A stretch of DNA of 64,000 nt from NCBI GenBank assembly GCA_050250855.1, contig JBFWNW010000001.1, forward strand, positions 409,357-473,356, given 5' to 3'. The translations under genes and the position numbers were made by a program. The stretch is from Candidatus Babeliales bacterium. Its GTDB lineage: Bacteria > Babelota > Babeliae > Babelales > JACPOV01. Shown piece after piece: positions 56,555-56,582 of the stretch (its first letter is position 1; every line of letters begins with the position of its first letter). The notes beneath the pieces were generated by a model. It saw only the letters and a list, made by a program, of their open reading frames with translations, did not search any database and was not told the origin of the DNA.

Positions 56555-56582
56555 TTGCCCGATAATATATATTATGTTAAAA
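56555..56582. other. dif: Candidate dif site (XerC/XerD chromosome-dimer resolution site)
   Basis: TTGCCCGATAA-TATATA-TTATGTTAAAA compared with E. coli dif GGTGCGCATAA-TGTATA-TTATGTTAAAT. The XerD arm matches 10/11, the central region 5/6, and the inner ATAA of the XerC arm is conserved. It lies in a 720-bp intergenic region, 3.4 kb from xerD. Confidence 0.5.

Follow-up and report, generated by a model that had tools for sequence, protein, structure and literature searches.

A very probable chromosomal dif site beside dnaN-recF and xerD in a Babeliales (Dependentiae) bacterium

Background

The dif site of E. coli and other proteobacteria is a 28-bp sequence with an 11-6-11 layout, which occurs once per chromosome, at the terminus as defined by GC skew, and which is served by two paralogous Xer recombinases and by an FtsK protein with a gamma domain. 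The locus described here resembles this system in each of these respects. It differs from E. coli dif in the outer part of the XerC arm, for which the consensus is nnnnCYGATAA, and in that no KOPS-like motif was found. The genomic setting is different as well, as dif is located ~0.3-13 kb from xerD-dnaN-recF and dnaA is near the terminus, whereas the corresponding genes of E. coli are found beside or near oriC.

The dif site of Bacillus subtilis, on which CodV/RipX and SpoIIIE/SftA act, is likewise situated at the terminus and used by two recombinases. Its centre, TATATA, is identical to the one described here, and its XerD-type arm matches at 8 of 11 positions. It stems however from another phylum and has another left arm, and B. 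subtilis carries dnaA-dnaN-recF at oriC.

In the difSL/XerS system of streptococci and lactococci and the difH/XerH system of Helicobacter and Campylobacter, a single dedicated recombinase acts on an atypical site, and its gene is located near this site. Such a proximity is also seen in the present case, where xerD lies 3.4 kb from dif and where this neighbourhood is conserved, but the present system combines a canonical site with two Xer paralogs. Finally, the attachment sites of IMEX elements, e.g. attP/dif1 of CTXphi, have the dif sequence and the Xer proteins in common with the locus, which, unlike them, is associated neither with an integrated element nor with a duplicated site or element genes.

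An earlier note had pointed to a candidate dif site in a Babeliales bacterium, a member of the candidate phylum Dependentiae. Our analysis places this candidate in the context of its genome and of its relatives.

Methods

The window, i.e. the whole stretch of 64,000 nucleotides that was analysed, corresponds to C1:409357-473356 of the genome G000, a draft assembly of 1.22 Mb with 36.6% GC in 11 contigs that is 95% complete. The phylum sample consisted of 101 genomes from 14 families of a single order. For the weight matrix 20 sites from relatives were used and G000 was excluded. As the reference for E. coli dif we used the version of the sequence that was quoted in the earlier note.

Results and discussion

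The 28-bp site and its neighbourhood

The candidate consists of two arms that form an imperfect palindrome around a 6-bp centre, the XerD-type arm being the conserved one (Table 1). Compared with E. coli dif, the XerD arm matches at 10 of 11 positions, the centre matches at 5 of 6, and the XerC arm has preserved its inner ATAA, all of which agrees with the earlier description; over its full length the left arm is identical to the E. coli XerC arm at 5 of 11 positions. We infer that TTATGTTAAAA is the putative XerD-binding arm and, by analogy with E. coli dif only, that TTGCCCGATAA is the putative XerC-binding arm.

The surroundings are also as they had been described. The intergenic gap, given as ~720 bp, extends from 56128 to 56850 and measures 723 bp, for dnaN-recF, given as 270 nt away, the distance from the site rightwards to the recF stop is 268 nt, with dnaN beyond recF, and an XerD-like gene is indeed nearby. 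The window contains no dnaA, which is located at C1:400815 (+), 8.5 kb ahead of the window start. The genes flanking the site in G000 are a glycosyltransferase-like gene, VKOR, recF and dnaN. The DOT1-like gene has retained its position between xerD and dnaN in several relatives (L048, L049, L052), and the eukaryote-like genes of this neighbourhood (WD40, Skp1, DOT1) fit the lifestyle of an amoeba or protist parasite.

Table 1. Features of the dif locus in the window and of the recombination machinery encoded elsewhere in the genome
Feature	Position	Strand	Remarks
dif-like 28-mer	56555-56582	+	TTGCCCGATAATATATATTATGTTAAAA = TTGCCCGATAA-TATATA-TTATGTTAAAA, read directly
Left arm, XerC-type (putative)	56555..56565	+	TTGCCCGATAA; relatives share nnnnC(C/T)GATAA
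Central 6-bp strand-exchange region	56566..56571	+	TATATA; T-N4-A in most relatives
Right arm, XerD-type (putative)	56572..56582	+	TTATGTTAAAA; near-invariant in relatives, always facing recF
Small-RNA gene (predicted)	56580..56796	-	between recF and dif; promoters, invariant core, terminator
Sigma-70-like promoter 1 of small RNA	56796->56768	-	
Sigma-70-like promoter 2 of small RNA	-35 56709->56704, -10 56687->56682	-	read from sequence
Small-RNA core	56642->56624 and just beyond	-	GGCUUCAUUACUACUCUCCUUU; invariant, single-stranded, 22 nt
Terminator hairpin	56617->56589	-	12 bp, with U-run
FUT8/NodZ-like gene	55279-56127	-	left neighbour of the gap
recF	56851..57933	-	NCBIfam TIGR00611 285 bits, exceeds cut-off; neighbour only
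dnaN	57938..59059	-	three beta-clamp Pfam domains; TIGR00663 214 bits, exceeds cut-off; neighbour only
DOT1-like (histone H3K79-type) methyltransferase	59277-59945	+	between xerD and dnaN
xerD-like tyrosine recombinase	60012..60920	-	302 aa; Pfam Phage_integrase and SAM-like N domain
XerC-like recombinase	C3:133308-134273		NCBIfam XerC 285.5 vs XerD 279.3, marginal split
FtsK	C3		768-aa frame; gamma domain 73.7 bits, exceeds cut-off

Uniqueness of the site

Within the window no further copy of the 28-mer with up to 3 mismatches exists, nor was any found in 100 shuffles. A Hamming scan of the complete assembly gives as the closest other 28-mer a sequence with 7 mismatches, which falls within a 433-aa ORF, and in the scan with the weight matrix the site reaches 34.2 bits as compared to 19.2 for the runner-up, which amounts to a margin of 15 bits. 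The 14 positions outside the search pattern contribute 11.4 bits; of 100,000 random draws, 8 attained at least this score. The genome scan with a dif profile that the earlier note had proposed is thus answered by one site genome-wide in an assembly of 95% completeness and 11 contigs, and neither a better dif nor multiple copies, either of which it had named as speaking against the candidate, were found in the G000 assembly.

One other sequence was considered as an alternative dif. The 28-mer at C2:176853 (GGAGCGCATAATATACGTTAAGTAAAAT) has 6 mismatches to E. coli dif and is overall closer to it than the site, but it was rejected as its XerD arm is poor, as it does not appear among the top ten of the matrix derived from the relatives and as it is located 35 kb from oriC.

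The Xer and FtsK machinery

G000 encodes exactly two tyrosine recombinases, one XerD-like and one XerC-like. The XerD-like protein scores 310 bits with the NCBIfam XerD model versus 275 with the XerC model, matches the structure of E. coli XerD (1A0P) with 8.9e-57 and keeps the catalytic residues R, K, H, R, H and Y, as read from the alignment. Both recombinases miss the equivalog cut-offs (310 vs 329.6 and 285.5 vs 335), which is to be expected in a deep phylum, and the XerS model yields only 104-121 bits with them. The genome therefore offers a cognate Xer pair, with intact catalytic residues as examined in the XerD-like protein, and in addition a translocase of the FtsK/SpoIIIE type with a gamma domain.

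By homology with E. coli and B. subtilis, the XerC protein (C3:133308-134273) would bind the left arm and the XerD protein (window 60012-60920) the right arm. If recombination has left the sister chromosomes linked as a dimer, the two copies of dif would be paired by the septal translocase FtsK (C3, 768 aa, gamma domain), which would also activate XerD; the dimer would then be resolved in two pairs of strand exchanges over the 6-bp TATATA centre. The arm that each protein would bind, the order of the strand exchanges and the dependence on FtsK are transferred by analogy. In a comparison of 7-mer and 8-mer skew between leading and lagging strands for KOPS or another FtsK-orienting polarity, the top k-mers were artefacts of WD40 and other repeat genes and no credible genome-wide motif emerged.

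Replication terminus and origin

Cumulative GC skew, which the earlier note had suggested as a check, has its maximum at the site. In detail, the + strand of C1 is G-rich and its cumulative skew rises over 466 kb to peak in the very 1-kb bin that contains the site; just 10 kb of the contig remain beyond it, over which the curve flattens and then falls. All 222 kb of C3 are negative in skew. The right end of C1 and the start of C3 have a WD40 repeat array in common, in the same orientation and with up to 94.5% identity, suggesting that the two contigs are adjacent, and it is on this inferred C1-C3 join that the skew switch within G000 itself rests. The assembly break falls into near-identical WD40-repeat gene arrays, the right end of C1 corresponding to window ~61600-64000 and beyond.

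The switch from negative to positive skew, i.e. the cumulative minimum, was found at C2:141,346. Half of the perfect DnaA boxes TTATCCACA of the genome (8 of 16) are assembled within 260 bp at C2:141673-141930 in the nusA-udg gap, five of them in one orientation, reading TGTGGATAA (three at 11-nt spacing), and three in the other, reading TTATCCACA and set in 22-nt repeats, with an AT-rich tract beside the cluster. This cluster is a textbook oriC at the cumulative GC-skew minimum. The oriC locus covers C2:141316-141999 between nusA and the gene for a family-4 uracil-DNA glycosylase, ~600 kb from dnaA. The two replichores, C2 right arm plus C1 on the one hand and the remaining contigs on the other, measure ~599 and ~619 kb. 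As the gene-strand bias is weak overall (~58% of genes on the + strand of C1), the skew is not merely a coding-strand effect, and the few strongly one-stranded gene clusters that are informative are consistent with the standard skew polarity. At a distance of 65 kb from the site, dnaA is terminus-proximal just as dnaN and recF are, and dnaN-recF are directed towards the site.

A position at or near the skew maximum was also found in five relatives with long contigs. The distance from the skew maximum to the genome's own site is 0.8 kb in G053, 4.9 kb in G063, 8 kb in G005 and 10 kb in G040, and in G095 the site falls within a plateau of ~50 kb. G040 is a closed circle of 1,337 kb and has a nine-box DnaA cluster at 38.5 kb, 682 kb from its site, which corresponds to a 51/49 split. 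The proposal that the terminus lies at the candidate site is thus borne out by the skew maximum in G000, by the origin opposite on C2 and by the skew maxima of the relatives near their own sites. That dnaN-recF should be found at a terminus was rightly called unusual, though it is typical for most genomes of the phylum that were sampled.

Two cultured species bear on this question. For Chromulinavorax destructans, GC skew and DnaA boxes have served to place oriC at 651,641-652,233, at a distance of half a genome from dnaA (PMC6561590). G062, a single contig of 1,174,272 bp, is a putative match to this species; its dnaA lies at ~0.4 kb, its dnaN at 87 kb and its predicted site at 95.1 kb, and none of the three is more than ~65 kb from the point opposite the published oriC. 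For Babela massiliensis the origin has been placed 152 nt upstream of dnaA, also by GC skew (PMC4378268). G092, a single contig of 1,118,422 bp with 26.6% GC in its 44-84 kb stretch, fits this species as a putative assignment. In this contig, positive skew prevails from 652 kb across position 1 up to ~90 kb and negative skew over the interval ~100-652 kb, with a terminus-type switch at ~90-100 kb, and four perfect DnaA boxes are located at 652.0-652.3 kb, at the negative-to-positive switch. A skew switch beside dnaA, at the published origin position, was not found in G092. The switch and the box cluster at ~652 kb, with none beside dnaA, call the published Babela origin into question; it is probably off by about half a genome.

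An opposite reading of the locus would be that it is a replication origin with an origin-associated motif, the polarity of the GC skew having been misread. Such a reading could invoke dnaN-recF and dnaA, which are the usual markers of oriC, as well as the published Babela massiliensis origin. However, no DnaA-box cluster was found near the 28-mer and the eight perfect boxes are at the opposite skew switch on C2, the strongly one-stranded gene clusters run in the direction that the standard reading of the skew predicts, and dnaN-recF point towards the site. In addition, the DnaA-box cluster of G040 is antipodal to its site, that of G092 coincides with the negative-to-positive switch rather than with dnaA, and the Chromulinavorax oriC is half a genome from dnaA (PMC6561590). 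We therefore consider an origin at this locus to be highly improbable and continue to regard it as the terminus.

Conservation in relatives

When 40 relatives of the same order were searched for ATAA-N6-TTATGTTAAA, one copy was found in most genomes of the same family, and the extended consensus in the relatives is nnnnCYGATAA-TnnnTA-TTATGTTAAAA. In a comparison of the gap with that of a relative from the same genus, the 28-mer and the small RNA alone are conserved; as the flanks cannot be aligned, the 28-mer constitutes an island of conservation. The block xerD-(DOT1)-dnaN-recF-...-dif is retained in named Babeliales MAGs with the site near dnaN throughout, and xerD adjoins dnaN in nearly all relatives.

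Across the phylum sample, the strict or slightly relaxed motif is present within 15 kb of dnaN in 51 of the 101 genomes, where ~3 of 121 matches would be expected by chance. Nearly all of such sites (50 of 53) follow dnaN-recF downstream and occupy the other strand, a placement by which the XerD arm is turned towards recF. Six genomes without the strict motif were examined, and four of them have a variant site in the identical place and orientation, for example TAGTCCGATAA TGCATA TTATGGTAACA. A motif downstream of dnaN-recF in fixed orientation is found in at least 55 of the 101 Dependentiae genomes, and its distance beyond recF in the relatives ranges from <1 kb to ~10 kb. In G015 the site appeared to be duplicated, being present at two contig ends; this was dismissed as an assembly overlap of the same site, since the flanks are identical over the ~80 nt compared.

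Of the 101 genomes, 91 have an XerD-like gene, which is accompanied by an XerC-like paralog in nearly all cases. The 15 genomes without a clear Xer pair, i.e. with no match or one weak match, comprise most of family f3 plus G046 and G099 (f19). None of these 15 has the motif near dnaN, as opposed to 51 of the 86 genomes with a pair (Fisher p = 7.6e-6, a value that treats related genomes as independent), so that the orthologous sites track the Xer genes, with the genomes being related to each other. About 40% of the Xer-positive relatives have no strict motif near dnaN, for which fragmented assemblies and variant arms account in some, though not demonstrably all, cases. G046, G099 and most of f3 apparently represent independent losses of Xer that are paired with the absence of the motif beside dnaN. 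Although G046 entirely lacks tyrosine recombinases, it has retained the FtsK gamma domain. In G092, the putative Babela genome, there is no FtsK gamma domain, in agreement with what has been published on FtsK of this species (PMC4378268), no XerD-like match and, in the regions scanned, no dif-like motif.

Could the 28-mer simply be a dif-like palindrome that arose by chance in AT-rich intergenic DNA and has no function? The genome has a GC content of 36.6%, and strict motifs of 19-20 nt do occasionally match unrelated coding DNA. Against this stand the 15-bit margin of uniqueness, the conserved island amid unalignable flanks, the linkage to recF with an orientation that is fixed in more than 50 genomes and the coincidence with skew maxima in six genomes, and a chance origin is scarcely credible in view of them.

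The conservation also contradicts the proposal of the earlier note that a terminus beside dnaN-recF implies a replicon that has undergone heavy rearrangement. With dnaA at a distance of 37-93 kb, the xerD-dnaN-recF-dif block is seen again in 14 families, including the genomes putatively matched to both cultured species, and can therefore not be a rearrangement of G000. This arrangement looks old and stable and ancestral to the phylum.

The small-RNA gene beside the site

The gap on the right side of the site is occupied by a predicted small-RNA gene (Table 1), which has a variable 5' hairpin ahead of its core. Transcripts of ~95 and ~180 nt would be expected from it. No difference in the core is seen among 18 distinct sequences, taken from MAGs and relatives of at least 12 families, and the terminator hairpin shows compensatory changes in 10 of its 12 pairs and no broken pair. 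The small RNA remains with recF where dif is kilobases off, and in some genomes it is repeated in tandem, as two or three copies. A scan of the gap with Rfam gave nothing credible, RAGATH-25 (E=0.56) and EF3314_EF3315 (E=0.025) being far under the gathering scores. The core GGCUUCAUUACUACUCUCCUUU resembles an anti-Shine-Dalgarno sequence. Speculatively, its target could be the translation start region of a secreted-protein gene at C1:116287, to which it is complementary at 19 of 22 positions; the repeats of the encoded protein look Sel1/TPR-like, as a putative assignment from the sequence.

Two short open reading frames in this region were rejected. A 17-aa ORF after the hairpin was judged to be non-coding, since its counterparts in the relatives vary in sequence as well as in length (6 to ~21 codons), and a 54-aa ORF across the site was discarded as its left part is not conserved at the locus.

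The close neighbourhood of the small RNA suggests yet another function for the 28-mer, namely that of a regulatory palindrome, such as an operator or a part of a terminator, that belongs to the small-RNA gene or to recF. Only 6 nt (56583-56588) separate it from the terminator hairpin (56589-56617), and the region has promoter-like sites on both strands. In the relatives, however, the motif moves from <1 to ~10 kb beyond recF while the small RNA stays attached to recF, and an 11-6-11 Xer architecture whose presence tracks the Xer genes argues against a regulatory palindrome, which we regard as exceedingly improbable.

Mobile elements and accessory DNA

As dif sites serve as targets for IMEX elements, the earlier note had considered that such an element might account for the odd non-coding material around the site. 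A related possibility is that the 28-mer is not the primary dif at all but the junction of an IMEX or another Xer-exploiting element, or a plasmid-type site similar to cer or psi. In favour of such readings, the gene content beside the site differs among close relatives, with a FUT8/NodZ-like gene in G000 and 5.9 kb of DNA on the other side in G001. But no second dif-like site or half-site is present nearby, and there are no two dif-like sites that would bracket element genes; the best other match in the window lies within an ORF. The two Xer proteins are the sole recombinases of the genome, neither an integrase gene nor phage or plasmid genes flank the site, and there is no better dif elsewhere in the genome. 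An element junction or plasmid-type site is consequently very unlikely, and the 28-mer is best regarded as the primary dif. The possible partner half-site at window 26457, which has 7 mismatches, was rejected as an IMEX boundary as it falls within a 433-aa ORF.

The IMEX explanation of the non-coding DNA likewise fails, as this DNA is mainly the conserved small-RNA gene on the right side and, on the left side, a short dispersed repeat (56158-56230), which is the sole stretch there that is common to other loci. This intergenic repeat (GCGCGGCTTAAAAGCAGTTGTTTCGCGCGGAGTTCTTCGAAGCC...) has copies at C2:58513 and C4:31641 and is also found in G008; two partial copies are located within the oriC gap (C2:141424-141548).

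Accessory genes do come and go beside the site, as exemplified by the FUT8-like gene of G000 and the 5.9 kb of G001. In this relative, which belongs to the same genus, the stretch between recF and dif is filled by the gene for a secreted protein of 697 aa and by a gene pair (L048 19090-19811). From motifs in its translations the pair is read as a putative toxin-antitoxin system of the MNT/HEPN type. None of the 5 ORFs of this stretch has a match in G000, which indicates that the gene content beside the site turns over.

Conclusion

The original candidate is supported by its uniqueness, its place at the terminus, its conservation and its association with Xer genes across genomes, and by a genome that encodes the machinery. 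We conclude that this Babeliales (Dependentiae) bacterium very probably has its chromosomal dif at window 56555-56582. Every feature of a chromosomal dif that can be tested computationally was found, except for convergence of the KOPS type. The site itself is of an ordinary kind, and it is its conserved genomic setting beside dnaN-recF and xerD that is unusual.

No paper dealing with both Dependentiae and XerD was found in the literature searched, and nnnnCYGATAA-TnnnTA-TTATGTWAAMA represents the first explicit dif consensus for this candidate phylum. The site fixes the ori-ter axis of Dependentiae genomes, in which dnaA, dnaN and recF lie near the terminus and oriC is remote from dnaA, and these genomes break the annotation shortcut that the origin is to be sought beside dnaA. 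The motif can be used for orienting and scaffolding Babeliales MAGs and for the interpretation of growth-rate (peak-to-trough) estimates. In the Babela family the motif and Xer were apparently lost together, along with the FtsK gamma domain as far as the one genome checked for it shows, which offers a natural experiment on how cells live when dimers are not resolved.

The arrangement of xerD-dnaN-recF-small RNA-dif with dnaA 37-93 kb away is plainly observed; that it has a functional role rather than being a frozen accident is speculation, and we consider it rather doubtful that it is a selectively maintained 'terminus module'. If it were, the genes for the initiator and the clamp would be replicated last and physically beside the site of dimer resolution, and clamp and initiator dosage or expression could be coupled to the completion of replication. 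Such a coupling to the terminus may suit the polyploid, fragmenting growth cycle that has been described for Babela and Chromulinavorax.
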